This document shows, piece by piece, positions 1,059 to 17,450 of a DNA stretch of 58,239 nucleotides (position 1 is its first letter; each line of letters begins with the position of its first letter). The position numbers and the translations under genes were made by a program. The notes under the pieces are model-generated. The model was not told where the DNA came from and made no database searches. It saw nothing but the letters and a program-made list of their open reading frames with translations. Location of the stretch: the NCBI GenBank assembly GCA_047620485.1, contig JBLHKT010000027.1:1-58239 (forward strand). The letters are read 5' to 3'. The DNA comes from Phycisphaerales bacterium. GTDB taxonomy: Bacteria > Planctomycetota > Phycisphaerae > Phycisphaerales > UBA1924.

Positions 1059-1475
1059 TCAGTCTTCAACTTCAGCTGTGCGGATATCTACAAACCCTGA
1101 CGGCAGGGTGGCGTACCACGTCGGCTCGGTAGAGATCGAGGTGACCGGGTAGATGCGGCCGCTCTGGTTGATCACGTCCATAATCGAGAGCTCGACGCAG
1201 ACCCGGTTGGGCTCGTCCCATTCGGCTGATTTGGTTTCGATGAAGGAGAGCCCGGGGCCGACGTGAGAGGCGGCCATGTTGAAACCATCGCCGTAGATGT
1301 CGATCACGGACTCTGTGGGCTCAGGGTTTGCGGAGATTCTGATGACGCCTGAGCCCTCAACCTTCGTGAGAAACTCTGGGAGAGTCTGGCGGAACAGAGG
1401 GGTGTTGAGGGAGAGACCGTGCTCTTCGAGCAGGGACTGGATTTCTTCGAGGCTCATGTGCTGAGGGTCTGTCAT
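1059..1475 (-). CDS. Hypothetical protein (138 aa), last gene of the long minus-strand array
   Basis: ORF with plausible ATG (MTDPQHMSLEEIQ...) and a terminator hairpin about 45 nt downstream. No recognisable domain. Confidence 0.5.
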   Translation of the reverse strand: MTDPQHMSLEEIQSLLEEHGLSLNTPLFRQTLPEFLTKVEGSGVIRISANPEPTESVIDIYGDGFNMAASHVGPGLSFIETKSAEWDEPNRVCVELSIMDVINQSGRIYPVTSISTEPTWYATLPSGFVDIRTAEVED

Positions 1476-1520
1476 GAGTGCTCCTTGTCGTGTGGCGTGC
1501 TGGGGGCGGCTTGAACGGGT

Positions 1521-2834: not shown

Positions 2835-5800
2835 TCGCCGATCTCCTTGGTGATTTTGATGAGATTACGATCCGCTCGGCGCTCATACTCGATGGTGTCA
2901 ACAAGGCGTCGGACGATCTCGATGCCGTCACCCCCGATGGAGCGTTCCTCGATGGGGAGGTCGATCCGTGGCGCGGCCTGTTCGAGCGGGTTGAACTCAA
3001 GCCCGTCGTCGGAGATGGTGACGACGACCCGTTGTGTGTTGATCTCGACCTTGATGTCGATCTGGTGGATCTTGTCGTCCTTATACCCGTGGGAGATAAC
3101 GTTGCTGAGCAGTTCGTCGAATACGATGCAGAAGCTTCGGCGGACTTTTTCGGTCAGGCTGTGTGGGGTGACGAACTTCTCGAAGAACTCGTTGACCCGG
3201 GTGATCTCGTCTTTGCGGTTCAGGATCGAGATCTCGAACCGTCGCTGCACCGAACTCTCGCTTGCGCCTCGGTACAGCAGGGTGAGAATGGTGATGTCGT
3301 CGGCCTGCTCGGCGCCGTTCTCGAAAGTACGGATCGCGTCGATGGTCTTGTCGAGAGCCTGCTTGTCCGAATCTGGTGCCTCGGTTTCGAGGAGCTTGGC
3401 GAGGCGATCCTCGGTGAACAGCTCCTTGGCCGGGTTCATCGCCTCGGTGACACCGTCGGTGTAGGTCACCAGCACGTCGCCGGGTTTGAGGGCGGTGCTT
3501 GACGACCCGTACTCCAGATCGGGCGAGGCACCGATGATGGGGCCGTGCCGATCCCGGAGGCGTTCGACCGAGCCATCGACGCGGCGGATCATGGGCGGGT
3601 TGTGCCCGGCGTTGGTGTAGGTCAGCTGCCCGGTGCGGGTGTTGAGCACCGCGAGGAACTCGGTGACAAACATGCAGGACTCGTTGCGCTCCGAGAGCCT
3701 GTTGTTGACCAGCGAGAGCACGCGGGAGGTCGAGACATCGTCCATGGCTCTCGAGCGGATGAGGGTCTGGGTGACGGCCATGAAGAGCGCAGAGGGGACG
3801 CCCTTGCCCGAGACATCGCCGATGGAGATACACAGGTGGTCGTCGTTGATGAAGAAGAAGTCGTAGAAGTCGCCGCCGACCTCGCGGGCGGGGATGATCG
3901 CAGCGCTGATGGAGAACTCGTCGTGGTCGGGGAAGGCGGGGAAGATGAGCGGGACCATGCTCATCTGGATGTCGCGTCCGACGTTGAGCTCCTGCTCCAT
4001 CCGCATGGAGTGCTGCTTGATGATGGCGTAGGCGTCGGTGAGCCGGTGGTTGGTGCCTTCGAGCTTCATGCGGCTCCACAGGAACAGCCCGGTCAGCCCG
4101 GTGATGAGCACGACGGCGAGCCCGGTTCCGACGACGGCCTGACGGGTGAAGGCGGCCCGTAGCTCGTAGGCCTCGGCAACATCGATCTCGGTGGTAATGC
4201 CCAGCCCGATGCGGTCGTCCCAGACCCAGGTGCCGATGACGGGCACGCCGCGGTAGTCGTTGTACCCGTCAAGATTGGACGCCGAGTTGCCGCCGGTGGC
4301 CTGGTCGGCCATGTGCGTGAGAGAGAGTTGCTCGGGCGGGAGGGAAGTGGTGTGCCCGAGGGTGAGGTTGCCGCCGGGGTCTCGCAGGGCGACGTTGAGG
4401 ATGCTGCGTTGGTCGGGTTCGATGATGCCGATCTGCTCGAGCTGATCGTCGAACCGGCTCTCGGAGACCATCTGCCCGAGCCGGTTGAAGGCGTAGGACT
4501 CGCCGGAATCGCCCATGCGGCCGCGCTGGAGGATCGCGGTGAAGGGGCCTTCGGTGTCGGCAGCAAGGATTAGCCCGCCGATCAAGGTGCCTGTCTCGTT
4601 ATACACGGGCGCGGCGACCAGCAGCAGTTGATGCAAGGTGTGCGTGACTGTGGCTTGGGGGTCCAGCGTGGGTACGCGGACCGAGGTCGGGCGGTTGTCG
4701 GCGATGACCTGGTTGAGCATATCGAGGCAGAGCGCCCGGTCAGTCTCGGTGAGCGTGGAGAGGTCTTCACCGGCAAGCAGGAGCTGCCCGTCGGGTGCGA
4801 TTACGACAAACGTGTCAAATGCGAGCGCGTCGGAGGTCTCGGTGAGCGCCCGGCGGAGGGCTGTTGACTGGGCTTCAAGCTCCGCGGCGTCGGCATCTCC
4901 CGACAGGGACTCAACCGCTAAGGGCACCGCGGGGCGCTGCGTCAGGCTCTGGGCATCGTACTCTCGGGCCCGGATCCAGTCGAAGGCGGCCTGGCTTGTG
5001 GTGCGCAGGACCGTGTTCTGCGCGTTGCCGACATCGCTGGTGGCTCGCTTGAACGTCGCGGACCAGCTCATCCGCCCGGCGAGGATGACCACGACGATCG
5101 CGGAAGCCCCGGTGACCACGATCGGCCATGAGTGGAGGAGATTGGCCTTGTGGAAGTCACGCTCGGATGTTTTACGACGGACGGCCAGAACGAGGGCGAG
5201 GACGACCACGCCTATGACAGATCCCACGATGGTGAGCGTCGGGTCACGAGTGAGCAGGGAGTCGCCAGGCGGCTCGAGGGCGATCCATCGGCGGTAGATG
5301 TCTTGGCGCTCCGACGCGGGGATGGAGTCCAGAGCTCGCCGGAGCATGGCGTGGAGCTCGGGCCAATCGTTGCGGGACGCGATGCACAGGTTCCACTCCA
5401 TGCCGGAGGTCCCGGCGACGCGGAGATTTGTCATCCCGTTCTTCTCGATATAGAAGCTCGCGGCGCCGATGTTGGCGATCACCGCGTCGGCGACGCCGAA
5501 CGAGACCAGCTCGAGCCCCTCCTCAATGTTGGGCACTTCGACCAGTTGCAGGTTGGGGTGGTTGTCGCGGACGTACTCAGCCGAGGCGTAGCCCTTCATG
5601 ACGACGACGTTGAGCCCGGCGAGGTCGGCGATGCTCAGCGTGCCCTCGGTCTCTCGCCGAACGATGATGACGATCGGGAGGTCGATGTACGGCTTGGTGA
5701 ACAGCATGAACTCGCGGCGCTCGGGCGTGTTCTGGGCCTCGAGCCAGACGTCGGCCTCGCGGGCCTTGGTCGCGGTCACGACGCCCTGCCAAGAGTCGTA

Positions 5801-6154
5801 TCGGGCGATCTCGAACTCGATGCCGAGCTTCTGTTCGATGATGCCAGCGTACTCGGCCATCACGCCGCGGTAGATCCCCTCGTCGTCGAAGTACTCCATC
5901 GGGGGGAAGTTGGGTGCTGGCGCGACCCGAATACCCGGGTGTGCGTCGAGCCAGGCCCGCTCTTCGGTTGTGATCACGAATTCCTCTTGAGCCAGCGCGT
6001 GAGGGCCGGCCGCGAGAAACAACAGGACTGAGACGGTCCAAAGCACCACCGAAACCACGGCGAGGCGGGGACGATCGCGAGTCTCAAGGGGTGTTGTATC
6101 TTGCTGAGACATGCGGCGGCTGCCTTTCATTCTCGACCCGATTTGAGGTCGCAC
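2831..6154 (-). CDS. 1107-aa multidomain membrane sensor: periplasmic solute-binding domain (SBP_bac_3-like), several TM helices, extracytoplasmic sensor region, PP2C/SpoIIE-type Ser phosphatase domain and C-terminal RsbW-like GHKL Ser-kinase (HATPase_c_2) domain
   Basis: PP2C motifs (REVGGDFYDFF..., DVSGKGVPSALFM..., TYTDGVTEA) and a C-terminal anti-sigma-factor-like ATPase region (ELLSNVISHG...GGDGIEIVRRL). N-terminal PBPb-like region follows a signal/TM segment. Confidence 0.75.
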   Translation of the reverse strand: MRPQIGSRMKGSRRMSQQDTTPLETRDRPRLAVVSVVLWTVSVLLFLAAGPHALAQEEFVITTEERAWLDAHPGIRVAPAPNFPPMEYFDDEGIYRGVMAEYAGIIEQKLGIEFEIARYDSWQGVVTATKAREADVWLEAQNTPERREFMLFTKPYIDLPIVIIVRRETEGTLSIADLAGLNVVVMKGYASAEYVRDNHPNLQLVEVPNIEEGLELVSFGVADAVIANIGAASFYIEKNGMTNLRVAGTSGMEWNLCIASRNDWPELHAMLRRALDSIPASERQDIYRRWIALEPPGDSLLTRDPTLTIVGSVIGVVVLALVLAVRRKTSERDFHKANLLHSWPIVVTGASAIVVVILAGRMSWSATFKRATSDVGNAQNTVLRTTSQAAFDWIRAREYDAQSLTQRPAVPLAVESLSGDADAAELEAQSTALRRALTETSDALAFDTFVVIAPDGQLLLAGEDLSTLTETDRALCLDMLNQVIADNRPTSVRVPTLDPQATVTHTLHQLLLVAAPVYNETGTLIGGLILAADTEGPFTAILQRGRMGDSGESYAFNRLGQMVSESRFDDQLEQIGIIEPDQRSILNVALRDPGGNLTLGHTTSLPPEQLSLTHMADQATGGNSASNLDGYNDYRGVPVIGTWVWDDRIGLGITTEIDVAEAYELRAAFTRQAVVGTGLAVVLITGLTGLFLWSRMKLEGTNHRLTDAYAIIKQHSMRMEQELNVGRDIQMSMVPLIFPAFPDHDEFSISAAIIPAREVGGDFYDFFFINDDHLCISIGDVSGKGVPSALFMAVTQTLIRSRAMDDVSTSRVLSLVNNRLSERNESCMFVTEFLAVLNTRTGQLTYTNAGHNPPMIRRVDGSVERLRDRHGPIIGASPDLEYGSSSTALKPGDVLVTYTDGVTEAMNPAKELFTEDRLAKLLETEAPDSDKQALDKTIDAIRTFENGAEQADDITILTLLYRGASESSVQRRFEISILNRKDEITRVNEFFEKFVTPHSLTEKVRRSFCIVFDELLSNVISHGYKDDKIHQIDIKVEINTQRVVVTISDDGLEFNPLEQAAPRIDLPIEERSIGGDGIEIVRRLVDTIEYERRADRNLIKITKEIGE

Positions 6155-6178
6155 TGGAAACCCTCGGCGGGCGAAGAT

Positions 6179-7096
6179 TCACCCACTCACACAATGGTTT
6201 GCGATCTCGGCGACCTGTGCGATGAGGGCGTGATTAATTCCCGCGATGAGCAGCCCGGAGTGGTGCTGCGCGTCGATGGGACGGCCTGTCCCGTCAACGA
6301 CCTCGCCCCCGGCGTTGCGGATCACCTGCACCGCAGCGACGAAGTCGAACGGGTCGGCCGGGCGACGCTCCCACAGGTTGACGTAGATGAAGTTGCCCTT
6401 CGCTGCGTCTGCCAGCGCCAAGGACGGTGAGCCACTCTCCATGCGAACCAGGCGGACCTGGTCGAGAGTCCAGGCGTCGATCAGGCTCGCGACGAGAGGC
6501 CCCGACCCACGCGAAGAGTGCACGAGCACGAGCGGCTGGTCGGTGGGGGTCTGATCGAGAGGCAGGTCAACACCGATGTCCTGCTCGCCGAACATGTCGA
6601 GGTGCAGCAGGCGGGATTTCCGGGTTCCCATGGTGTAGGAGATCTCGCCGGTCGCGGGGTTCGCGATGATCCCGAGGAACGGGCTGCCGTTACGGAAGAA
6701 CGCGAGGACCACAGCGGTGGTGCTCATCCGGTTGATCAGGGCCCAGGTGCCGTCGAGCGGATCGACCGCGACCGCGATGCCCTGCTCGGGGAGAAACCCT
6801 CCCATCTCCTCGCCGACCAGTTCCGCGTCGGGGCAGAACTCGGTGAGCCGCTCACGGATCATCTGCTCGATCTGTTCTTCTTGCGCGGTCACCGGCGTCG
6901 CGTCTTGTTTGAATGAGGTGGAATCCTGCAGCGGCGTCATGCGGAGCCTGCGGATGACGCGGCAGGCCTCGAGGGTAGTGTTCAAGGCGAAGTCGAGCCA
7001 TTCGTTGAGTGCGTGGTCCGGTGCAGGTCTCGGCTTGTCTCGATCTCCGCTCCTGAAGGCGCCAATAGCTGATTTCTCGGTCGGGGTGAGTTCCAT
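6179..7096 (-). CDS. Inositol monophosphatase-family phosphatase (IMPase/CysQ/SuhB-like, about 305 aa)
   Basis: AVDPLDGTWALI metal-binding motif plus family-typical EEMGG and WERRPADPFD segments. Start placed at MELTPTE. Confidence 0.7.
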   Translation of the reverse strand: MELTPTEKSAIGAFRSGDRDKPRPAPDHALNEWLDFALNTTLEACRVIRRLRMTPLQDSTSFKQDATPVTAQEEQIEQMIRERLTEFCPDAELVGEEMGGFLPEQGIAVAVDPLDGTWALINRMSTTAVVLAFFRNGSPFLGIIANPATGEISYTMGTRKSRLLHLDMFGEQDIGVDLPLDQTPTDQPLVLVHSSRGSGPLVASLIDAWTLDQVRLVRMESGSPSLALADAAKGNFIYVNLWERRPADPFDFVAAVQVIRNAGGEVVDGTGRPIDAQHHSGLLIAGINHALIAQVAEIANHCVSG

Positions 7097-7116
7097 GTGC
7101 GGTTCGTCCTCTCGGT

Positions 7117-9708
7117 TCAGGTGACGGCGGGTTGATTGCTCGTCACGGGGGTTGTTGTTTCCATGGCGCTGATAGCGGCCTTGACACACCGCGCCTCGGC
7201 GGCGGCCATCCGCGACAGCGTTTTCTCATCTGCTCGGGCCCATTGGATTTCCTCGAACTCGCCGCCGGGTGTGAACTGCCTGGGTGACTGCTCGAACGCG
7301 ACGGAGATGCCGAAGGCCTGGATCTTGACCCAGGCGTGGTCGGTCTGGCGGGGGTCGTAGAAGTAGCCCTGGGAGACGGTCGGGATCGCGTCGCACTCGA
7401 TCTCCCACCCGGTTTCGGCGTGGAGCACCCGCTTGAGGGCCTGCTCGCCGGTTTCGGTGGGGTGCATAAATCCCTTGGGCACCCACAGCATCGAGCCGTC
7501 GGGCTTGAGTCCCACAAGAACATCGATCGCGTCGTCCGAGTCATGCTTGCGAAGCACCACACCCGCGGCGGACTGGTTGGGCCCCCAACGCCCCAGCAGC
7601 CCACGCCCCGCAATGCCGGTCCGCCCTCGTGGGTTGAGCAGGCGTCCGGCATCGTCCCGCTTGGCCCGCCGCCCCGTGGCAACAACGGTCGTGTGGTCAT
7701 GGTCCTCGCCGTCGGCCCACGCGGAATCCCCGGTGGTTGCTGAGGGCGACAGCACGCTCTCGTGCACGAAGTACGGTGGTGTGTATTCCGGGCACGGCAC
7801 GGACCAGGGCGCGTAGTCGATCGAGACGCGGCACCGTGCCGGGTACTCGGGCGGACGCTCGCCGCGAATCTGCAGGTGAAAGTCGTCGGCCACGAGGTTG
7901 AACGCCAGCGATTCCACCGAGTACAACGCGTGCATGAGCTGGGGCAGTTCGCACTCGCCTCGATCTCGGGCAGCATCAAAGCTCAGCGTGTGGGCGGCGA
8001 ACTTGAGCAGGGCCACGCGGTACACCAGCCAGTCGTCGTGCTCCTTGATCTCGAAGCAGATCTCCCGGATCCGGCGCACGCCATCGAGGATCTTGCGGAA
8101 GCGAAGGTCCCACTTCACGAACCGCAGGTCCGGCGGCAGCAGCTCGGGCTCCGGCACGACGCGAGAGCCGAGCAGGAACTCCTCGAATCGCCGGAGCCGC
8201 TCGAGATCGTCGAGCCCGAACTGCTTGCTCATCACGAACTTCAGGTCGTTCTCGAGCTTGGCGAAGTCCACCTCGATGGGCGTCTCGCCGGAGTGGGTCC
8301 AGTCGATAAACCAGACGTTGTCGGAGTTGTCGCAGATGATGTTCTGGAGGTTTAGGTCGCCGTGGGACAGGCAGACCTCGCTCTCGATCGCGTCGATGTT
8401 CGAGGTGATGAGTTGCAACATCGAGACGACCGTGCTGTGATCGACCGCTCCGGCTGGCCCGATGCCTCGGTCACACGCCTGCTTCGCGATCTCCGACGCG
8501 TTCTCTTCGAGCCACGTGAGCTGCTGCTCGCCGTCGAGCCCGAGAACCCGGTACGGCGCGACCAGAGCGGTTCGGCTCGTGTTGCGGTGCAGCTTCTGAG
8601 AGATCAGCACCAGCGCACGCCCGAGCCTACCCATGAATCTTTGGAAGCTCTCGTCGTCCTCAGCGTTCTCGAAGGTCTCCTGCAGGGTCTCGGGTCGCCC
8701 CTCCATCGCAGCGAACTCCATCGCGACCCCCACCGAGTCGCCGATCGAAACCGGGTGCGAGAACGCGGGGACGTTTTTGCCCAAGAGGTCTTTCACGAGG
8801 TGGTAGCCGTTAATCTCGCGGCGCATCTGCGTGAACTCGTCGATCTTGAGCACCACCGGCTCGATCTGCGCGTGGCCCTTCCATCCGTCAGCGAGGAAGA
8901 GCAGGCTGCCGCTGAACCCACCCTGGAGCGGCTTGAGCTCGACGCGTGACCAGTTCATGCACAGGCGTTCGATGATCTGGAGGCGGTCATCGCTGATCTG
9001 TGAAACCGATTCGGGCGGCCCGATCTCACAGGGCGAGCTGGCGATCTGCTCGAAATCGGTGGGATCAAGCCCGGCGTATTCGGCGGTCTCTTGCAGATCC
9101 AGCAGGACTTCGATTTCGCAGGCCGGGAGGTTGTGGCGAAGCGCGGCGAAATGAGCCTCGATGGATGAGCTCCCGGTGAGATGTGATGAGACCGCGACTC
9201 GCTTTGCCCCGAGTACGTTTCGCAGGAAGGTGGCGAGGGTCAACACCCGATCTTCGGTGTGGCACCCCACGACCAGGAAGCGGGTGTCATTGTCCAGATT
9301 CAGCTTTGCCGGGTCGATCCCTGCGGCGGTCGTGATCGCGCCCTTGAGCTGGCTCCACAGAGATCGCTCTTCATCTGGGCCCACGATCTCAGCGGTGCTC
9401 AGGTAGGGCTTGAGGACCTCGACCACGTCCAGGGCTTTGAGCTCGCTCGCAGAGGGTGAGGCGGACAGGGAATCCCCCGTGGTGCTGCCCGTCCAGGTGA
9501 CGGTGATGCAAGAGATATCCTCGCCACGGTCTGCCGCCAGGGCGGCCCGTTTGAGAAACGTAGGCAGCGGGCCCTCGCCGTAGGACTTGCCCCGCCCCAT
9601 GAGTCGCTCGATCTCGCGGGCCCCGATGCTCTTCTTGTGCTCAAGGTGTGCGACATCGGCGCTGAGGAACTTGTTGTCCAATCCGATGCCGATGACGATG
9701 GTCTTCAT
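7117..9708 (-). CDS. 864-aa tri-domain protein: N-terminal isochorismatase/nicotinamidase-fold domain (catalytic Cys apparently replaced), central APH/choline-kinase-fold phosphotransferase, C-terminal NUDT9-like ADP-ribose pyrophosphatase-type Nudix domain with a degenerate Nudix box
   Basis: Kinase motifs: GGFSGSLLF (Gly loop), VVLKID (Lys), LSHGDLNLQNII (HGDxxxxN), FIDWTHSG. NUDT9 signature: GRTGIAGRGLLGRWGPNQSAAG. Nudix box reads GFMHPTETGEQALKRVLHAETGW (REUxEE becomes RVLHAE). N-terminus: TIVIGIGLDNKF...FLVVGCHTEDRVLTLATFL...GAKRVAVSS resembles the PncA/isochorismatase fold. Start at MKTIVIG, preceded by a GGGAG ribosome-binding site. Confidence 0.65.
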   Translation of the reverse strand: MKTIVIGIGLDNKFLSADVAHLEHKKSIGAREIERLMGRGKSYGEGPLPTFLKRAALAADRGEDISCITVTWTGSTTGDSLSASPSASELKALDVVEVLKPYLSTAEIVGPDEERSLWSQLKGAITTAAGIDPAKLNLDNDTRFLVVGCHTEDRVLTLATFLRNVLGAKRVAVSSHLTGSSSIEAHFAALRHNLPACEIEVLLDLQETAEYAGLDPTDFEQIASSPCEIGPPESVSQISDDRLQIIERLCMNWSRVELKPLQGGFSGSLLFLADGWKGHAQIEPVVLKIDEFTQMRREINGYHLVKDLLGKNVPAFSHPVSIGDSVGVAMEFAAMEGRPETLQETFENAEDDESFQRFMGRLGRALVLISQKLHRNTSRTALVAPYRVLGLDGEQQLTWLEENASEIAKQACDRGIGPAGAVDHSTVVSMLQLITSNIDAIESEVCLSHGDLNLQNIICDNSDNVWFIDWTHSGETPIEVDFAKLENDLKFVMSKQFGLDDLERLRRFEEFLLGSRVVPEPELLPPDLRFVKWDLRFRKILDGVRRIREICFEIKEHDDWLVYRVALLKFAAHTLSFDAARDRGECELPQLMHALYSVESLAFNLVADDFHLQIRGERPPEYPARCRVSIDYAPWSVPCPEYTPPYFVHESVLSPSATTGDSAWADGEDHDHTTVVATGRRAKRDDAGRLLNPRGRTGIAGRGLLGRWGPNQSAAGVVLRKHDSDDAIDVLVGLKPDGSMLWVPKGFMHPTETGEQALKRVLHAETGWEIECDAIPTVSQGYFYDPRQTDHAWVKIQAFGISVAFEQSPRQFTPGGEFEEIQWARADEKTLSRMAAAEARCVKAAISAMETTTPVTSNQPAVT

Positions 9709-9739
9709 GGGTACTCCCGTGGAATCCGCGGCACACGCC

Positions 9740-10072
9740 TCAAAAACCAGCGAGCGCCACTTGCTCGCTCTCAAACACCTTCAGGAGCGTGTCGAAGCCC
9801 GAGATCTCAAAGATGTCGCTCACGGACTCGTTGAGCCCGCACAACCGGAGCGACCCGCCCCGGTCCCCGAGCTTTTTGGCCGTCACGAGCAGCACTCGCA
9901 GCCCGGCGCTGGAGATGAAGTCGAGCGCGGTGAAGTTGATGAGGACCTTGTCGGCACCCTGTTCCACCACGTCGCCGAGCGTGCTCTCGGCCTGTGCGCT
10001 GGTGTTGGTGTCGAGTGAGCCGTCGAAGACGATTACCTTGACGTCGTTGCTGTCCTGGATGTCGATGTTCAT
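9740..10072 (-). CDS. STAS-domain anti-sigma-factor antagonist (SpoIIAA/RsbV-like, 110 aa)
   Basis: Typical STAS sequence with the conserved phospho-Ser region (...NFTALDFISSAGLRVLL...). Start at MNIDIQD. Confidence 0.8.
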   Translation of the reverse strand: MNIDIQDSNDVKVIVFDGSLDTNTSAQAESTLGDVVEQGADKVLINFTALDFISSAGLRVLLVTAKKLGDRGGSLRLCGLNESVSDIFEISGFDTLLKVFESEQVALAGF

Positions 10073-10127
10073 CCGATTCTCCTGCGGCGTGTGGTGTGGG
10101 CGGGCTCTCGGTGAGTCGTGCTGAATT

Positions 10128-11357
10128 TCACGATGGGCTCCCATGAAACTTGATGGCGATCACGGTGATGTCGTCGCTCTGCGGCGTGCCGAACTCGTGC
10201 TGAGTGACCGCGTCGGAGATCCGGCGGATGACCCTCTCGGGGGTGGGGTTCTCGTCGGCGTTGATTAGCCCCTCGAGGCGGGGCTCGCGGAACATCTCGC
10301 CCGTCGAGTCGGTGGCCTCGGTCACTCCGTCGGTGTAGACCACAAGCATCTCGCCGCGGGTGAGGGTTGTGGAGCTCTCGGAGTACTCGGCGTCCTCGAC
10401 CACGCCCAAGGGCGGGCCGTCGCGGTCGGTGAGCATCTCGGCGTGCTTCCCGGGCGGCCGCCGGTACGGCTTGTTGTGCCCCGCGTTGGTCATGACGACC
10501 TCGCCGGTGTTCAGGTCGAGGATGGCGATGAACAGCGTGATGAACATGCATGAGTCGTTGTTGATAGCCAGCTCGGCGTTGACCCGGGAGGCCAACGCCC
10601 CAGTCGATTCGGCCCGCATCGCGTTGGCCTTGATCAGTGTCTTGGCGGCGGCCATGAACAGCCCCGAGGCGGCACCCTTGTCCGAGACGTCGCCCACGAG
10701 GAAGCAGAGACGGTCGTCGTCCACGAAGAAGAAGTCGAAGAAATCACCGCCAACCTCGAGCGCGGGCTTGAGCATCCCCGCGATGGTGCACTCGGTGCGG
10801 TTGGGTGTGAGACGGCGTGGCAGCATGTTCATCTGAACCTGCCGGGCGACCCTGAGCTCACGCTCCATGCGGTCCTTCTGCGACTTGATGACGTCGTACG
10901 CCTTTTGCAGCTCCGCGGACCGCTGCTCGAGCGCCGCGTTGGCCTTCTCGAGGTCCTTCTTGTGCCGGTCGGCGAGCTTCGAGAACGAGTTGAGCAGGTG
11001 GTCCTGCTCCTTCTGCTTGGTGATCTCCACCGACTCGGCGAGCACCAGTTGTCGCCCGCCACGCTCTATGTGGCGGAGAGTGGTCAGGATCGAGACGGGC
11101 CGGGCGCCCAATCGGATCTCGGCCTCGACCGGGAACGGGCGGCCCTTGTCGAGCCGCTTGCTGGCACGCTCCCGGTTCAATTCGGGCAACCGATCGGCGA
11201 GATCGTTGGACTCGGTTGAGGCTGCGAACCAGCTCTCGAAGGCCCGATTGGTGTATTCCACCCGCCAGGTCTGGGCGTCGGCTAGCGCGATCCCCACGGC
11301 CAGGGAGTCCGCGGAGTCTTCGATCCCAATGCGTTGTCCGTCTCGCCCGCCCATCAC
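10128..11357 (-). CDS. Sensor-domain (PAS-like) PP2C/SpoIIE-family Ser phosphatase (RsbU/RsbP-like, 409 aa)
   Basis: PP2C motifs (LEVGGDFFDFFFVDDDRLCFLVGDVSDKGAASGLFMAA...VYTDGVTEA...SDDITVIAIKF). Start codon overlaps the stop of the upstream globin gene. Confidence 0.8.
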   Translation of the reverse strand: MMGGRDGQRIGIEDSADSLAVGIALADAQTWRVEYTNRAFESWFAASTESNDLADRLPELNRERASKRLDKGRPFPVEAEIRLGARPVSILTTLRHIERGGRQLVLAESVEITKQKEQDHLLNSFSKLADRHKKDLEKANAALEQRSAELQKAYDVIKSQKDRMERELRVARQVQMNMLPRRLTPNRTECTIAGMLKPALEVGGDFFDFFFVDDDRLCFLVGDVSDKGAASGLFMAAAKTLIKANAMRAESTGALASRVNAELAINNDSCMFITLFIAILDLNTGEVVMTNAGHNKPYRRPPGKHAEMLTDRDGPPLGVVEDAEYSESSTTLTRGEMLVVYTDGVTEATDSTGEMFREPRLEGLINADENPTPERVIRRISDAVTQHEFGTPQSDDITVIAIKFHGSPS

Positions 11358-11716
11358 CCGGACCCGACGATGCTGGCCCGGTAGCCCTGCAGTTGCTCTG
11401 AAACGTTATCGATGACACTCTCATCAACGTCGTGGTCTTCGAGGGTCTCGCCGATCAGCTCGACGATCAGATCGAAGTGCAGGTCCTTGATGCTCATCCC
11501 GGAATGCATTTTGTGGAGTTGCTCGTGCGTGTACGACACGGGCCCACCGAGGATGGTGGCCCAGAACTTGGTCTGGTGATCGATCAGCGACGCCATGTCG
11601 GTGTGCTGAAAAAACGGCGAGAGCTGCTCTTCGCTGAGCACCTTGTCGTAGAAATCTGTGACGAGCTTTCGCACCGTCGCAAACCCGCCCAGCTTGTCGT
11701 ACAGAGACTGTTCCAT
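11354..11716 (-). CDS. Truncated hemoglobin (group I trHb, 120 aa)
   Basis: MEQSLYDKLGGFATVRKLVTDFYDKVLSEEQLSPFF...WATILGGP is the 2/2 hemoglobin signature. Start chosen at the internal ATG of a longer ORF whose N-terminal part is Arg-rich noise. Confidence 0.75.
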   Translation of the reverse strand: MEQSLYDKLGGFATVRKLVTDFYDKVLSEEQLSPFFQHTDMASLIDHQTKFWATILGGPVSYTHEQLHKMHSGMSIKDLHFDLIVELIGETLEDHDVDESVIDNVSEQLQGYRASIVGSG

Positions 11717-11745
11717 CGTTCGTCCTTCGGTGTTCGTGCCGCGGA

Positions 11746-13032
11746 TCAGTCGAGTTGCTTGGGCACGGGCGGGGCATGATTGCCCTTGTCGGTGAGTTTG
11801 GAGAAGTCCACGCCGGTGGCGTTGCTCATCTGCTCCATCATCGAGACCACGCTGCTCGTGAGGTTTTTGACGTACGCGGGGAGCCCGTCGCCGCTCCCGG
11901 AGTCCACGATGGTGAGCTTGTCGATCCTGAGATTGTCCGCGACGACGCGTGACATCTTGTCGATCAGCTCGGGCATGAGGTGGATGAGAAACAGGTTTTC
12001 GGCCTCGCCGCCGTTCCACTGCTTCTGGAGCGCCTCGATCGCCTGGGCCTTGGCTTTGCCCTCCTCAAGGGTGCGGCTGGCCTTGCCCTCGGACTCGAGC
12101 AGCATCGCATCTCGCTTAGCGCGGGCCGGCACGACGGTGTCCGCGTTATGGAGTTGAACCGCAAGCTGAGCCCGCTTGGTCTGCAGCTCGATCTCCTCGC
12201 CCGCCCGGGTGATCTTGCCCGCAACACTCGCCCGCTCCACAGCACGGTTTGTCTCGGCCTCGAGATCGGCCCGCTCGACGGCCAGCGCGTTCTCGTGCGT
12301 GATGATCGTCCGTTCGGCTCCGATCTCGGCTTCGCGACCGATCCGATGCTGATCCGCAGCCACGGTGATCGACTCGGCCTTGGCGTGGGCCTCGGCGATG
12401 CTCGCGTCCCGCTGAACTACAGCGTTCTTCTTTCGCCCGATCGCCTCAAGATACCCCTGTTCGTCGGTCACCTCCTGCACCTGCAGGAAATCGAGCACGA
12501 TCCCCAGGTTCTTGAGATCAGCCCGAGCGTGCTCGGCGGCGGCTTTAGCGAATTCCAAGCGATTCGAGTTCGCATCCTCGGGACTCATCGTCGCGACCAC
12601 GCCACGCAGCGCTCCCTCGATCGCCTGCTTGGCGGTCTTCACCACCGCGTCTCCGCCCTTGCCGATGAACCGCTCGATCGCGGCGTCCATGCCGTCCTCG
12701 CTATTGCTCGCGATCTTGACGGTTGCCTTGGCCTCGATGGTGAGTGGGATCATGCCGCCGGACATCGCCTTGTGCAGGATCAGTTCTACAGGCAGCGAGT
12801 TGAGCGGCAGCCTCGCAACGGTCTCGAGCATCGGACGCTTGAACCCGCGCCCGCCTCGCAGCACCCGGTACCCGACGGTGCTCCCGTCGGCGGCCTTGCG
12901 CTTTCGCCCCGCGATCACGACCAGCTCGTTTGGTGGGCACAGGACGATGTTGCTCTTGAAGAAGACGAGCGTCAGCATGATCGCGAGAACGCCCAGGCCG
13001 ATTGCGAGGCCGATGATCTGTGGGGTATCCAT
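11746..13032 (-). CDS. Flotillin/SPFH (band-7) domain membrane protein (428 aa)
   Basis: N-terminal TM helix, SPFH domain, and a long coiled-coil Ala/Glu/Arg-rich region characteristic of bacterial flotillins (FloT/YqiK-like). Confidence 0.75.
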   Translation of the reverse strand: MDTPQIIGLAIGLGVLAIMLTLVFFKSNIVLCPPNELVVIAGRKRKAADGSTVGYRVLRGGRGFKRPMLETVARLPLNSLPVELILHKAMSGGMIPLTIEAKATVKIASNSEDGMDAAIERFIGKGGDAVVKTAKQAIEGALRGVVATMSPEDANSNRLEFAKAAAEHARADLKNLGIVLDFLQVQEVTDEQGYLEAIGRKKNAVVQRDASIAEAHAKAESITVAADQHRIGREAEIGAERTIITHENALAVERADLEAETNRAVERASVAGKITRAGEEIELQTKRAQLAVQLHNADTVVPARAKRDAMLLESEGKASRTLEEGKAKAQAIEALQKQWNGGEAENLFLIHLMPELIDKMSRVVADNLRIDKLTIVDSGSGDGLPAYVKNLTSSVVSMMEQMSNATGVDFSKLTDKGNHAPPVPKQLD

Positions 13033-13081
13033 GGTGGTTGGTCCTTTGCTGTGCTCGATCGGGAGTGGGGGGGTGGGGGGA

Positions 13082-14509
13082 TCAAGCGTCGAAGTACATC
13101 TCAAACTCGGTCGGGTGGGGTCTCAGGCTCAGGTGTTTGATCTCTTTTTCACGCTTCACGCGGAGCCAGGTATCGATGAGGTCTTCGCTGAACACGCCGT
13201 GGTCGGTCAGGAACGAATAGTCGGCTTCCAGCGCATCGAGCGACTCGGACAGCGAGCTGGGTGTCGCCTGGAGCAACCGCCCGTGCTCGGATGTGGCGAA
13301 CTTGAAGATGTCCTGGTCCACGGGTGGTGCCGGCTCGGTTTTGTTGATGACGCCGTCGATCCCGGCGAGCAGGATCGCCGACAACGCCAAGTACGGGTTA
13401 CATAGCGGATCGGGCGTGCGGAATTCCACCCGCTTCGCGTTCGCGTTGGCCCCGGTAAATGGCACGCGGACGCACGCGCTGCGGTTGCGCTGCGAGTAGG
13501 CGAGGATGGTGGGGGCCTCATACCCGGGGACGAGTCGCCGGTAGGAGTTGGTGGTCGCGGCGGCGAACGCGCACACAGCCGGGGCGTGGGCGAGGATCCC
13601 GCCGACGAAATGAATCGCAAAGTCGCTCAGGTCGGCGTACTTGCCCGGCTCGTAAAAGATGTTCTTCTTATCTTTCCAGACACTGATGTTGGCGTGCATG
13701 CCCGATCCGGCCTGCTCGAAGATCGGCTTTGGCATAAACGTCGCGATCTTGTTGTACCTGGCCGCGGTATTCTTGACCGTGTACTTGAACTTTATCGCGT
13801 TGTCGGAGGTCTCGAGGAGCTTGCCGAACTTGAACCCGATCTCGTTCTGACCGGCGGACCCGACCTCGTGGTGGTGCAGCTCGGGGGTCAGCCCGACGAT
13901 CTCCATGACCTTGGAGATCTTGCCCCGAATGTTGTGCCCGGGGTCATTGGGTGGGGCGGAGAAATAGGCGTTCTTGGGGCGGGCCCGGTGGCTCCGTTCG
14001 GGGGCTTTCCCGCCAACGTGCTCGGCGGCATCAGAGTCCACGAAGTGGTATGCGTGCCGGGCGTCCTGCCCGTACCGAACGTCGTCAAACAGGTAAAACT
14101 CAGGCTCCACGCCGAACGACGCAAAGTCCGCCAACCCTATCGAACGCAGCAGTCGCCCGGCACGGTGCGCCACGCCTCGGGGGTCTCTCGAGTACGGCTT
14201 GTACCCGTCCGGATCGAGGATGTCGCAGAACAGGGAGAGCGTGGGGTCGTCGTAAAACGGATCAACGAACAGCGAGTTCGGATCCGGTTTGAGGATCAGA
14301 TCGCTCTCGCTGATCGCCTGGAACCCGCGCACCGAGGAGCCGTCGAAGTTCACACCGCGTGCGAAGCTGCCCTCGTCGAGTGCTTTCGCGGGAAACGTGA
14401 TGTGCTGGAGCCCGCCGAAGAGATCGACAAACTTGAAATCGACAAACTCGATCGATTCCTCGCGGATTCGCTTGAGTATGTCCCGGACATTGATCGGATG
14501 GTCAGTCAT
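13082..14509 (-). CDS. glnA: Glutamine synthetase, type I (475 aa)
   Basis: Full-length GS with conserved beta-grasp and catalytic regions (e.g. FDGSSVRGFQ..., KPIFEQAGSGMH...). Start at MTDHPIN. Confidence 0.9.
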   Translation of the reverse strand: MTDHPINVRDILKRIREESIEFVDFKFVDLFGGLQHITFPAKALDEGSFARGVNFDGSSVRGFQAISESDLILKPDPNSLFVDPFYDDPTLSLFCDILDPDGYKPYSRDPRGVAHRAGRLLRSIGLADFASFGVEPEFYLFDDVRYGQDARHAYHFVDSDAAEHVGGKAPERSHRARPKNAYFSAPPNDPGHNIRGKISKVMEIVGLTPELHHHEVGSAGQNEIGFKFGKLLETSDNAIKFKYTVKNTAARYNKIATFMPKPIFEQAGSGMHANISVWKDKKNIFYEPGKYADLSDFAIHFVGGILAHAPAVCAFAAATTNSYRRLVPGYEAPTILAYSQRNRSACVRVPFTGANANAKRVEFRTPDPLCNPYLALSAILLAGIDGVINKTEPAPPVDQDIFKFATSEHGRLLQATPSSLSESLDALEADYSFLTDHGVFSEDLIDTWLRVKREKEIKHLSLRPHPTEFEMYFDA

Positions 14510-14523
14510 GTGGTATGGCCTCG

Positions 14524-14856
14524 TTACAGCGCCCGCGGTCCGCGAACACCGGTCCAAATGGTGACGATGTCGTCGAGCGGCTGGACCATGATCCGCCCCC
14601 ACCCGCCGGTCTCGTGAGCCCCTCGGCTAATCGCGTCGATCGCAGTCTCGACCTGTGCGTCGTTAACCGCGAGCTCGATGCGGACCCTTGAGAACAGCGA
14701 GACCTCCCGCTGTACGCCGCGGTACATCTGCTGCTCGGACTTGGGCGCGGTGCCCATGACCGTCGAGGCGGTGATGTGCCTGATCTGAGAGTCAAACAGG
14801 GCCTGCTTGACCGACGGGAGCTGTTCTGGGCGGATGACCGCAACGATGAGTTTCAT
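14524..14856 (-). CDS. glnK: PII-family nitrogen regulatory protein (GlnB/GlnK-like, 110 aa)
   Basis: MKLIVAVIRPEQLPSVKQAL...GKIGDG-like core. Position between amtB and glnA is the classic arrangement. Confidence 0.8.
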   Translation of the reverse strand: MKLIVAVIRPEQLPSVKQALFDSQIRHITASTVMGTAPKSEQQMYRGVQREVSLFSRVRIELAVNDAQVETAIDAISRGAHETGGWGRIMVQPLDDIVTIWTGVRGPRAL

Positions 14857-14870
14857 GGGTGCAGCCTCCG

Positions 14871-16205
14871 TTAGTCGGTGGTAAAGATCTGGAATCCGCC
14901 GTAGGACTCCATGCCGTGCTCGTCCAGATCCAGCCCGCGGAGTTCGGTCTCGCGGGTGACACGCAGCCCGACGATCGCGTCGATGGTCTTGAAGACGACC
15001 CACATCGCGATCGCGGTGAAACCGAGGCAGGCCGCGACACCCAAGCACTGGATCCCGAGCTGCCCGAACCCGCCGCCGTAGAACAGCCCGTCCTTGGGAG
15101 ATCCCAGAGACGACTGCCCGAACAGCCCGACCGCGATGGTGCCCCACACGCCGCACAGCCCGTGCACCGGGATCGCACCGACCGGATCATCGACCTTGAT
15201 TTTGTTAAGCCACGTGATCCCGTAGACCACTAGCACGCCCGCAACGATCCCGATCGCGAGTGCTCCGCCGGACCCGACCACCGCACAGGGCGCGGTGATG
15301 CCCACGAGACCCGCGAGCGCACCGTTAAGAGCCACGGTGAGGTCGGGCTTGCCGAACATCAGCCACGCCGCAGACATCGCTGCGATTGCGCCGGCCGCGG
15401 GTGCGAGCGTGGTGTTCATTGCGATCCTTCCGACGAGGCCCGGATCGCCCATCCCGAGCGTGGAGCCGGCATTGAACCCGAACCACCCAAACCACAAGAT
15501 GAACACGCCCACGGTGACCAGCGGGAGGTTGTGACCCGCGATCGCGTTGGGTGAGCCGTCCTTGTTGAACCGTCCGATGCGAGGCCCGAGCATCCAGGCC
15601 CCGACGAGAGCGGCGCACCCGCCCACGCCATGCACCACGGTCGAGCCCGCGAAGTCGTGGAAGTCCATCTGTGCGAGCCATCCGCCGCCCCAGACCCAGT
15701 GGGCCACCACCGGGTATACAAACGCGGTGAGCAGGAACGAGTAGATCAGGTAGGCGACGAATCGCATCCGCTCGGCCATTGCGCCCGAGACGATGGTGGC
15801 CGCAGTTCCCGCGAACACCGCCTGGAAGAGCCAGAACACGGAGGTGGGGAGGGTTCCGGTCGCGTCATTTACGCCGGACATAAACCACCCGGAGGTGCCG
15901 AACAGCAGTCCGTCACCGCCGTACGCGATGGCGTACCCGAAGATAAAAAACCCGAGTACGGCGAAGCAGAAGTCCATCACGTTCTTCATCAGCACGTTCG
16001 CAGCGTTCTTGGCGCGGATCAGCCCCGCCTCGACAAGCCCAAACCCCGCCTGCATAAAGAACACGAGGATCGCCGCGAGCAGCACCCAGAGCGTGTCGAG
16101 CCCGTCGAACACGGTCTCCATGCTCGGCTCATCCTGCAGGGCAATCGCGGGTGTCGCCAAGAGCAACATCGCTGCGGTGCTGGTGTGAAGACATCTGCGT
16201 TTCAT
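14871..16205 (-). CDS. amtB: Ammonium transporter (Amt family, signal peptide plus 11 TM)
   Basis: Strong Amt signature throughout (e.g. ...FFMQAGFGLVEAG..., ...HGVGG...). Confidence 0.9.
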   Translation of the reverse strand: MKRRCLHTSTAAMLLLATPAIALQDEPSMETVFDGLDTLWVLLAAILVFFMQAGFGLVEAGLIRAKNAANVLMKNVMDFCFAVLGFFIFGYAIAYGGDGLLFGTSGWFMSGVNDATGTLPTSVFWLFQAVFAGTAATIVSGAMAERMRFVAYLIYSFLLTAFVYPVVAHWVWGGGWLAQMDFHDFAGSTVVHGVGGCAALVGAWMLGPRIGRFNKDGSPNAIAGHNLPLVTVGVFILWFGWFGFNAGSTLGMGDPGLVGRIAMNTTLAPAAGAIAAMSAAWLMFGKPDLTVALNGALAGLVGITAPCAVVGSGGALAIGIVAGVLVVYGITWLNKIKVDDPVGAIPVHGLCGVWGTIAVGLFGQSSLGSPKDGLFYGGGFGQLGIQCLGVAACLGFTAIAMWVVFKTIDAIVGLRVTRETELRGLDLDEHGMESYGGFQIFTTD

Positions 16206-16618
16206 TCGTGACTCCCGATTGTGTCCGATTCGCCGGAGCGTGGAAAGAACCGTCGCCCGGAGGCCGCAGACTTGATCGCGTTAATGAGATCCTCGCCCAT
16301 GCGTGGCTTGATCACGTACGCCAAGGCACCGGCCTCGAAGGCTTCCTTGCGGTAGTCCGGGTCGTCGTGGATGGAGAGAAAGACGATGCCCGCCTTCTGA
16401 GACGATTCCCGGAGCGCTCTGGCAACCTTGAACCCGTTCATGCCCGGCATGGCGATATCCAGCACGGTGACATCGGCCTGAACCCGTGCCGCCGCCGCGA
16501 GCAGCGACGGCCCGTCGCCTACGGACGCCACGATCTCAAAGACTGGCCGCAACAGGTTCTCGATCTGTGCGAGCATGCCCTCGTGATCCTCCGCGATGAG
16601 TACCCGGATTCGGTCCAT
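16202..16618 (-). CDS. Single-domain CheY-like response-regulator receiver protein (138 aa)
   Basis: Receiver-domain motifs (VLIAEDH...DIAMPGMNG...); stop overlaps the amtB start by 4 nt. Confidence 0.8.
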   Translation of the reverse strand: MDRIRVLIAEDHEGMLAQIENLLRPVFEIVASVGDGPSLLAAAARVQADVTVLDIAMPGMNGFKVARALRESSQKAGIVFLSIHDDPDYRKEAFEAGALAYVIKPRMGEDLINAIKSAASGRRFFPRSGESDTIGSHE

Positions 16619-16707
16619 GGTTTCGGCTCGTCCAACTGATCTGAATCCGGCGTGTCCACGAGACCACCGGGCGAGTCTGTTTGTAGTGGAGACGACCCGC
16701 TGCGGCT

Positions 16708-16752
16708 ACTGTCAAAACTGACAGTTGTCACGACCGAATATTGACAGTTGTT
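16708..16752. promoter_or_regulatory. Candidate operator: two direct TGACAGTTG repeats 23 nt apart (16719-16727 and 16742-16750), each embedded in a TGTCA-N-TGACA inverted arrangement
   Basis: Read directly from the 170-nt intergenic region upstream of the receiver-amtB-glnK-glnA array and downstream of the NarL-type regulator gene. Confidence 0.35.
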
Positions 16753-16789
16753 TAGGGAGCGAACGGTCCAGATATAGATGTGGACAGAC

Positions 16790-17425
16790 CTATGACGAGC
16801 ACAGCCCGTTTCGAATCCCGTACTGGATCAGCTCAGCGCTCGTGGCGATCCCCAGCTGCTGCATCATCCGGTACTTGTGGTACGCCACCGTCCGGGCGGT
16901 GATGTGCAGCGTGCCCGCGATCTCTTTCATCGTGCGCCCCTCGGCGAGCAGCTGCAGCACCTCCCGCTGCCTCGTCGAGAGCCTTGAAGACGGACGCTGC
17001 GATTGATCCTCGCCGAGCGCGACCATGATCTCCTGGGCCAATGTCGGCGGAACGTGGGTCCCACCCTCGAGCGCCACGTTCACCGCGAGGAACAGCTCGG
17101 AGGCCGCGGCGGTCTTGAGCAGATACCCCGAGGCCCCGAGCCGAAAAGCCTCGGCCGCCACGATTGGGTCCTCGTTCACCGTCATGTACACGACCCGGAT
17201 CCCCGGGCAGCGTTCGAGCAGCAGTCGGCCTGCATCGAGCCCGTTGAGCTCGGGCATCGAGATGTCCAGCAGGGCGATGTCGGGCCTGAGCCGCTCGCCA
17301 GCCTCGACCGCCGCCCGCCCGTTGGATACCGCTGCCACGATCTCGAACTCGGGCTCGAGCAGCGACTGGAACGCTTCGAGAAGCATCCGGTGATCGTCAG
17401 CGATGAGGACTCGGGGCTTTTTCAT
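16790..17425 (-). CDS. NarL/LuxR-family response regulator (receiver plus LuxR-type HTH, 211 aa)
   Basis: Receiver-domain N-terminus and C-terminal ...LSTRQREVLQLLAEGRTMKEIAGTLHITARTVAYHK... HTH. Confidence 0.85.
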   Translation of the reverse strand: MKKPRVLIADDHRMLLEAFQSLLEPEFEIVAAVSNGRAAVEAGERLRPDIALLDISMPELNGLDAGRLLLERCPGIRVVYMTVNEDPIVAAEAFRLGASGYLLKTAAASELFLAVNVALEGGTHVPPTLAQEIMVALGEDQSQRPSSRLSTRQREVLQLLAEGRTMKEIAGTLHITARTVAYHKYRMMQQLGIATSAELIQYGIRNGLCSS

Positions 17426-17450
17426 GGGGTTTCGTTTGGATCGGTTCGTG

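Follow-up and report, generated by a model that had tools for sequence, protein, structure and literature searches.

A truncated hemoglobin paired with a divergent PAS domain: a candidate heme-based input module of bacterial signalling enzymes

We analyzed a stretch of 58,239 nucleotides (nt) from a metagenome-assembled genome (MAG) of a Phycisphaerales bacterium (Planctomycetota; GenBank assembly GCA_047620485.1, contig JBLHKT010000027.1, positions 1 to 58,239). This whole stretch is called the window. It carries a gene for a group I truncated hemoglobin (trHb) whose stop codon overlaps the start of a phosphatase gene. The phosphatase consists of an N-terminal domain that we call N-dom, a long helical linker and a PP2C catalytic domain. 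All the genes relevant here lie on the minus strand. We observed that trHb and N-dom are essentially obligate partners in both directions, and that the enzyme joined to N-dom varies between loci. We lean towards the view that they represent a previously unrecognised, phylum-spanning class of heme sensors. In this class a stand-alone group I truncated hemoglobin with invariant His E10 and Gln E11 would signal in trans through a dedicated PAS domain, and would control cyclic AMP synthesis, PP2C switching, two-component and chemotaxis-like kinases and cyclic di-GMP.

Overlap of the trHb and phosphatase genes

The positions of the two genes and of their parts are as follows.

11716..11354, minus strand: trHb gene, a 120-amino-acid (aa) open reading frame (ORF), MEQSLYDKLGGF...IVGSG*, group I truncated hemoglobin
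11357..11354, minus strand: stop/start overlap GTGATG, read from the sequence
11357..10128, minus strand: PAS/linker/PP2C phosphatase gene, 409 aa
10953..11357, minus strand: N-dom, predicted divergent PAS domain, phosphatase residues ~1-135, with the C-terminal DIT-like motif EITKQKE
10836..11021, minus strand: long helical linker (J-alpha, predicted coiled coil), residues 113-174
10146..10721, minus strand: PP2C/PPM catalytic domain of the SpoIIE/RsbU family, residues 213-404

At the junction the minus strand reads GGG TCC GGG TGA TGG. The TGA of trHb (11356..11354) overlaps the phosphatase gene by 4 nt if the latter starts with the GTG at 11357, or by 1 nt if it starts with the ATG at 11354. 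A first-pass annotation of this DNA had described an overlap of the trHb stop and the PP2C start at 11354-11357, and both its coordinates and its description are correct. Further, we compared the junctions of 115 trHb/N-dom pairs on other contigs. The 4-nt overlap was the commonest (n = 26), a gap of 2 nt was found 17 times and an overlap of 1 nt 9 times, and nearly every intergenic gap fell within -11 to +38 nt. Since the 4-nt overlap is the mode among these pairs, the overlap of the trHb and phosphatase genes exceeds what is expected by chance.

Pairing of trHb and N-dom across bacteria

The closest homologues of trHb (56-65% identity) are followed by SpoIIE genes (loci L001 and L002/L003; loci on other contigs are numbered with the prefix L). 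The remoter ones (43-54% identity), which include an uncultured Roseibium chromosome and Roseibium sp. HPY-6, are followed by a gene of a class III cyclase. When the phosphatase and the cyclases were aligned, the first ~135 residues proved homologous, and this part is N-dom. The shared motifs are W..F.N..F..WF, GR, GAR and [DN]I[ST]KQKExE[HY]MLDS[YF]S.

The N-dom family is rare. An exhaustive profile search among 1.84 billion proteins gave 281 representatives (E <=1e-3). A scan of genomes, in which each species was represented by one genome, gave 44 loci, all in MAGs. They came from Alphaproteobacteria, Chloroflexota, Acidimicrobiia, Gemmatimonadota (Longimicrobiales), Myxococcota and Burkholderiales. 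The trHb gene was found directly upstream on the same strand in 43/43 N-dom loci, in most of them with E ~1e-50 against the trHb hidden Markov model (HMM). L050 was rejected as a false positive; it is a generic PAS-PAS-GAF kinase that fits nothing but the search pattern, with an HMM score of 13.6 and without trHb.

The scan in the opposite direction was performed on metagenomes and was seeded on the clade motif [LQ][IMV]DHQTKF. It gave 441 relatives of trHb, of which the best 80 were inspected. An N-dom ORF lay directly downstream in 76 of these 80 loci. The remaining 4 contigs end less than 100 nt past trHb, so the pair was present in all the testable loci (76/76). Among the trHb homologues that were examined individually, 8/8 had an N-dom gene downstream.

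Unrelated contigs carry 115 trHb/N-dom pairs (107 unique), across which the identity drops to ~22-30% for N-dom and to ~40% for trHb. The version with PP2C recurs in L001, L002/L003/L058, L007, L057, L076, L135 and L136. With 43/43 N-dom loci and 76/76 testable trHb loci, the hemoglobin ORF is conserved and the pairing extends beyond this one genome, two points on which the reading of the first-pass annotation had depended. We found no further gene family that recurs across all the loci beyond the two-gene core of trHb and N-dom, and the SPFH/flotillin gene upstream of trHb in the window is not conserved across them.

Two of the loci deserve a separate description. In L007 (4564-6006, a Longimicrobiales long-read MAG) both trHb and the N-dom phosphatase are split between frames, the phosphatase into an N-dom ORF of 137 aa and an ORF of 319 aa in another frame. 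These splits are probably indels of the assembly and not signs of pseudogenes. L137 (3001-4424) comes from Roseibium sp. HPY-6 (GCA_040530035.1, contig JBEWCD010000003.1, ~336.8-338.3 kb), which is labelled as a strain and not as a MAG; it has the trHb-cyclase version with a 4-nt overlap.

The predicted heme pocket of trHb

Judged by its sequence and its model, trHb is a group I truncated hemoglobin with an intact predicted heme pocket. It matched the Pfam family Bac_globin (PF01152) with E of 2e-22 (80 bits, cutoff 21). The top sequence matches in the PDB were group I truncated hemoglobins of Tetrahymena, M. tuberculosis and cyanobacteria. The AlphaFold2 model has the 2-on-2 helical fold, with a predicted local distance difference test score (pLDDT) of 92.4. 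In Foldseek comparisons with M. tuberculosis HbN and the Tetrahymena trHb the template-modelling (TM) scores were 0.88-0.90 and the root-mean-square deviation was ~2.2 Å, the nearest structure being M. tuberculosis HbN. The Protoglobin model reached 17.6 bits on trHb of the window, under its cutoff of 25. There is no NCBIfam family specific to this trHb clade.

Helix positions were mapped via the PDB entries of the Tetrahymena mutants Y25F, Q46E and Q50E. The heme-pocket residues are Tyr23 (B10), Phe36 (CD1), Leu44 (E7), His47 (E10), Gln48 (E11) and His71 (F8). Across 49 unique trHbs of the module, G10-G11, Y23, F36, D46-H47-Q48-T49-K50-F51, G57-G58-P59 and H71 are invariant or nearly so, and L44 is kept in 90%. 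In 38 database homologues H71, Y23, F36 and the Gly-Gly motifs are also (near-)invariant. Overall, trHb has the look of a functional heme protein with an unusual distal site, and probably binds heme. His47 aligns with His46 (E10), which we take to be the distal ligand of GlbN from Synechocystis.

N-dom is a divergent PAS domain by prediction

No Pfam or NCBIfam model matched N-dom above its cutoff. The best hint was PAS_8, which aligned to residues 16-65 with 18.6 bits (cutoff 21.8, thus sub-threshold). By sequence, N-dom appears as an unmodelled, divergent PAS family. AlphaFold2 modelled the N-terminus of the phosphatase with a pLDDT of 94.7 and placed the PAS core at residues 22-111. The model shows PAS topology: five strands form an antiparallel sheet, helices lie on its flanks, and a DIT-type exit leads into J-alpha. 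Foldseek matched it with a probability of 1.0 to the PAS domains of PpSB1-LOV, YtvA, FixL and DosP (TM <=0.65, normalised to target length).

The last strand of N-dom is closed by the motif E/D-I/V-T/S-K-Q-K-E. It corresponds to the DIT motif, which joins PAS domains to the J-alpha coiled coil. The linker that follows is predicted as a single continuous helix (residues 113-174, pLDDT >93), and its motif KQKExEH/YMLDSF/YS is kept across output types.

The catalytic domain matched Pfam SpoIIE (PF07228) over profile positions 1-191 of 192 with E of 2.4e-45 (155 bits), and the motifs GGDFFD, GDVSDKG, TDGVTEA and SDDITV are present in the translation. The phosphatase has the layout of the SpoIIE/RsbU/RsbP family, i.e. 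sensor domain, long helix and catalytic domain. The earlier designation of this protein as PAS-PP2C therefore holds, for PP2C by the full-length Pfam match and for PAS by the predicted fold, the sequence score of the latter being sub-threshold.

We also asked which residues of N-dom are conserved. The domain keeps conserved Arg, Trp and Asn residues. In 107 aligned sequences there was no invariant His, Cys or Met and no column dominated by His, and prominent Met residues were limited to the linker (positions 121 and 128). Because such invariant residues are missing, N-dom is unlikely to hold heme itself, and we rejected its interpretation as a FixL-like heme domain or a LOV domain. Position 109 (~11031-11033, minus strand) is Cys in 63/107 sequences (59%), mostly of the cyclase type, and Ser in the window. 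It directly precedes the DIT-like motif, and a redox-sensitive thiol is possible in part of the family.

Output domains joined to N-dom

The complete downstream genes of the metagenome set encode 50 cyclases, 3 SpoIIE phosphatases and 1 LytS-type kinase. The PP2C version found in the window is thus a minority output of a wider, mostly cyclase-linked module. Longer N-dom proteins include HisKA-HATPase kinases, hybrid kinases with receivers, GAF and PAS kinases, Hpt-HATPase CheA-like proteins, one PAS/SpoIIE/HATPase_c_2 protein and one GGDEF protein; two of their loci (L051 and L052) were checked, and both had trHb in the operon. Altogether there are at least six types of output: class III cyclase, SpoIIE, HisKA kinases, LytS-type kinase, Hpt-HATPase CheA-like kinase and GGDEF.

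The residue in front of the T[IV]GD motif of the cyclases is Lys or Arg and in no case Glu, and therefore they are not canonical guanylate cyclases. They are probably adenylate cyclases. A Crp-like regulator gene (L006 5155-5868) adjoins one cyclase-type module.

We built a rough neighbour-joining tree from the N-dom sequences. The types of output were interleaved in it, and two histidine kinases fell inside the PP2C clade of the window. Therefore the input must have moved between outputs repeatedly. Such diversity and interleaving of outputs is the signature of a portable input module.

Gene neighbourhood and partner switch in the window

The genes around the pair are listed below.

16205..14871, minus strand: amtB
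14859..14524, minus strand: PII gene
14602..13082, minus strand: glnA
13104..11746, minus strand: SPFH/flotillin gene, directly upstream of trHb
10069..9740, minus strand: STAS anti-sigma-factor antagonist, 109 aa, 58 nt downstream of the PP2C gene
~9708..7117, minus strand: TCAD9/APH-like kinase and NUDIX protein (Pfam domains)
7099..6179, minus strand: inositol-monophosphatase-family protein (Pfam domains)
6154..2831, minus strand: SBP_bac_3/dCache/SpoIIE/HATPase_c_2 protein, 1107 aa (Pfam domains)

The STAS protein matched Pfam STAS with E of 4e-21 and TIGR00377 (ant_ant_sig) with 79 bits (cutoff 53). The Ser of its ...DFISSAGL... segment aligns by eye with the phosphorylated Ser of SpoIIAA and RsbV. 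It is the likely substrate of the phosphatase.

The 1107-aa protein carries a second PP2C, together with the periplasmic sensor domains SBP_bac_3 and dCache and with HATPase_c_2 at residues 980-1103. RsbW-like proteins of L007 and L002 were used as phmmer queries, and this ORF was their single match in the window (E 2e-34). The opposing SpoIIE and HATPase_c_2 activities of this one chain probably target the STAS protein of the trHb-linked phosphatase. All three components of a partner switch (PP2C, STAS and the RsbW/SpoIIAB-type kinase domain) are thus encoded in this gene run. The same trio of PP2C, STAS and HATPase_c_2 is present in L007 and L002, and STAS and HATPase_c_2 partners accompany the PP2C-type modules of the window, L002, L007 and L135. 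The first-pass annotation had suggested O2/NO/redox input from trHb into a partner-switching cascade by way of an RsbU/RsbP-type phosphatase. At the level of sequence the cascade is supported by the STAS protein 58 nt downstream, which passes TIGR00377, and by the RsbW-like HATPase_c_2 domain.

The TCAD9/NUDIX and inositol-monophosphatase proteins may be the output of the STAS switch. Both families also adjoin trHb-PP2C in L001 (1-1606) and L007 (948-4446), in different gene orders; counting the window, they are found together in one metagenome contig and in two MAGs, of Phycisphaerales and Longimicrobiales. In L135 (3781-6087) an isochorismatase/TCAD9/PTP protein stands in place of these companions. 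The ORF call for the TCAD9/NUDIX protein of the window begins with a TTG at 9774 (885 aa) and shares 35 nt with the STAS gene. A start with the ATG at 9708 (MKTIVIG..., 863 aa) is more likely, as the resulting length matches that of the 862-aa homologue in L007.

In a scan for promoters and terminators the region did not exceed shuffled sequence. At 9749-9769 (minus strand), across the final codons and the stop codon of the STAS gene, there is a terminator-like hairpin with GGTTTTT behind it; such sites occur at shuffle frequency. A gene for AmtB flanks the trHb module also in L002 (4252-5550) and, with PII, in L054 (1927-3744), which are unrelated loci. This linkage (3 loci of more than 100) could hint at a connection with nitrogen status, or be a coincidence. 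Genes of cyclic-nucleotide-binding ion channels adjoin two PP2C-type modules (L002 1985-3361; L135 6089-7261).

Proposed mechanism and its alternatives

The gene anatomy, the folds, the conserved residues, the obligate synteny and the shuffling of outputs are described above as we observed them. We consider it probable that trHb and N-dom form a two-polypeptide input module, composed of a heme sensor subunit and a dedicated docking and transducing PAS domain. Physical contact between trHb and N-dom, the signal (O2, nitric oxide (NO), carbon monoxide (CO) or redox), the direction of regulation and the downstream target are inferred parts of this model.

The module would work as follows. Translational coupling would supply trHb and the enzyme in roughly equal amounts, and in the enzyme dimer trHb would dock on the PAS domain and the first part of the helical linker. 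If the heme then bound O2, NO or CO, or switched between ferrous and ferric, the surface of trHb would be altered. The invariant distal His E10 would probably be involved by coming on and off the iron, as it does in the hexacoordinate GlbN of cyanobacteria. The conformation of the PAS domain and the linker would then shift and turn the output domain on or off. In the window, PP2C would dephosphorylate the adjacent STAS protein and the RsbW-like kinase domain would counteract it, so that the heme signal and an external ligand signal may converge on one partner switch. Elsewhere the same input would drive class III cyclases, histidine kinases, a CheA-like kinase and a GGDEF protein.

Several observations weigh against this model. 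Truncated hemoglobins with Tyr B10 and Gln E11 are typically very oxygen-avid NO dioxygenases, and an enzymatic role of trHb is possible. No natural fusion of trHb with N-dom was present in 121 trHb clusters or among the 150 listed of the 281 N-dom matches, and therefore the usual Rosetta-stone support is missing. Pairwise identities of trHb and N-dom correlate (mirror-tree, 107 unique pairs, r = 0.76), which speaks for co-inheritance, but this correlation is confounded by shared phylogeny. The metagenome count rests on the best 80 of 441 relatives. Adjacency is not universal, as in L052 trHb is three genes from the N-dom CheA-like gene. The 1:1 ratio is not universal either, as in L135 a single trHb lies between two N-dom genes. 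Finally, the genes scanned in the window (1059..20315) include neither a sigma factor nor another defined output for the STAS switch.

The two exceptional loci have the following structure. L052 (1205-5968) is a chemotaxis-like operon with trHb, a soluble methyl-accepting chemotaxis protein, CheY, CheX and the N-dom CheA-like kinase. L135 (1-3784) has a 672-aa PAS/SpoIIE/HATPase_c_2 gene upstream of trHb and a 380-aa SpoIIE gene downstream, and one hemoglobin may serve two receivers there. At the start of the L135 contig there is a short N-dom-like fragment that ends in a stop codon.

We considered four other explanations of the pairing. In the first, sensing is coupled to an enzyme: trHb produces or consumes nitrate, nitrite, NO, O2 or a similar small molecule and the PAS domain senses that molecule directly, so contact between the proteins is not needed. 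NO-dioxygenase trHbNs, M. tuberculosis HbN among them, typically have the Tyr B10/Gln E11 pocket, the conserved Arg, Trp and Asn of N-dom could line a ligand pocket, and the amtB/PII/glnA flanks (window, L002, L054) hint at nitrogen metabolism. However, a diffusible product does not explain the near-100% adjacency, the stop/start overlaps and a PAS family that never occurs without trHb. The amtB linkage, moreover, is limited to 3 loci, and no other gene family is recurrent. We regard this explanation as unlikely, although it is the strongest of the four.

According to the second, trHb is a co-expressed protector, which detoxifies NO or reactive oxygen species or buffers O2 and passes no information on to the pathway. 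Among the roles of group I truncated hemoglobins, detoxification is documented best, and PP2C enzymes and cyclases use Mn/Mg. Yet the outputs (cyclase, PP2C, kinases, GGDEF) are chemically unrelated and N-dom is the only part they share. A protector would not follow one non-catalytic domain through repeated shuffling in at least six phyla, which makes this explanation quite improbable.

The third makes trHb a donor or chaperone of heme and the PAS domain the real heme sensor, comparable to FixL and DosP, whose heme-PAS domains are indeed among the structural neighbours of N-dom. We find it very improbable: the PAS core has no conserved His or Met ligand, Cys109 occurs in 59% of sequences and is Ser in the window, and trHb retains a full distal pocket (B10, E10, E11) that a mere carrier would not need. 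Chance or lineage-specific adjacency without a functional link, for which we found no supporting point, is refuted by the 115 pairs (107 unique) in unrelated contigs, which persist despite the low identities.

Comparison with known systems

The nearest precedent for the input module proposed here, by analogy, would be RsbQ-RsbP and, more generally, RsbT-RsbU. In RsbQ/RsbP and RsbT/RsbU a small partner binds where the N-terminal domain meets the linker and activates the PP2C phosphatase by way of a coiled coil, and partner-plus-PAS input of the RsbQ-RsbP kind is reused on histidine kinases and GGDEF proteins in other bacteria (PMC12143880). As in RsbQ-RsbP of Bacillus subtilis, an accessory gene here adjoins a PAS/linker/PP2C gene, the predicted substrate is a STAS antagonist (RsbV there), and the input is shuffled among outputs. 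The differences are that the partner is a predicted heme globin and not an alpha/beta hydrolase, that the PAS domain is of a different family, for which Pfam has no model, that the dominant output is a class III cyclase, and that we see no evident output of the sigma B type.

Stand-alone H-NOX and NosP are small heme proteins encoded in an operon with a kinase or diguanylate cyclase, which they regulate in trans in a gas-dependent manner. Our module resembles them in that a separate small protein, by prediction a heme protein, is encoded beside a signalling enzyme and the partner outputs vary modularly. In contrast to the H-NOX or FIST-type NosP fold, the fold here is the 2-on-2 globin, and the partner enzymes carry a dedicated receiver PAS domain.

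To our knowledge, the recognised globin sensors all use a 3-on-3 globin fused to the output. Globin-coupled sensors (HemAT, DosC/YddV, AfGcHK and the globin-type RsbR of Vibrio stressosomes) use a globin-fold heme domain as gas or redox input to chemotaxis, cyclase, kinase and partner-switching outputs, as we propose for our module. They differ from it in the 3-on-3 fold and the fusion, as trHb is a 2-on-2 globin encoded by a separate gene. The first-pass annotation had set the pair apart from globin-coupled RsbR-type sensors, and the 2-on-2 fold, the separate polypeptide and the Protoglobin score below cutoff agree with that distinction.

In resting GlbN of Synechocystis and Synechococcus, the iron is ligated by His E10, which gives way to exogenous ligands while the E helix moves a long way (compare 1RTX with 1S69). 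GlbN structures 1RTX and 1S69 were both among the PDB matches of trHb. GlbN and trHb share membership of group I as well as Tyr B10, His E10, Gln E11 and His F8. Unlike trHb, GlbN is not known to be linked to N-dom, and a detoxification role has been proposed for it. The trHbs of the module have Leu at E7, where GlbN has Gln, and are without His117 of the covalent heme link.

In openly searchable full text, with subscription-only papers outside this scope, we found no description of a truncated hemoglobin paired with a phosphatase, cyclase, kinase or PAS domain. A survey of globins does not mention the trHb/N-dom pairing either (PMC8717448). This candidate family of gas or redox sensors is apparently undescribed. 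An accessory sensor protein with a PAS input module is known as such; the truncated hemoglobin as the sensor would be new.

In summary, if the proposed model is true, trHb would be a third type of stand-alone heme gas sensor in bacteria, beside H-NOX and NosP. As at least one listed isolate, Roseibium sp. HPY-6, carries the module, the hypothesis is directly testable, and the two genes are small enough for a gas-responsive switch in synthetic biology. The model would also give a function to a rare, unmodelled PAS family and identify the input of ~100 adenylate cyclases, phosphatases and kinases that are now orphans in bacteria from the sea and from sediments. For most truncated hemoglobins the physiological role is still debated, and where it is established it is mainly detoxification of NO or O2. 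For one clade of this globin family, mostly known or proposed for detoxification, our results would suggest a regulatory role.

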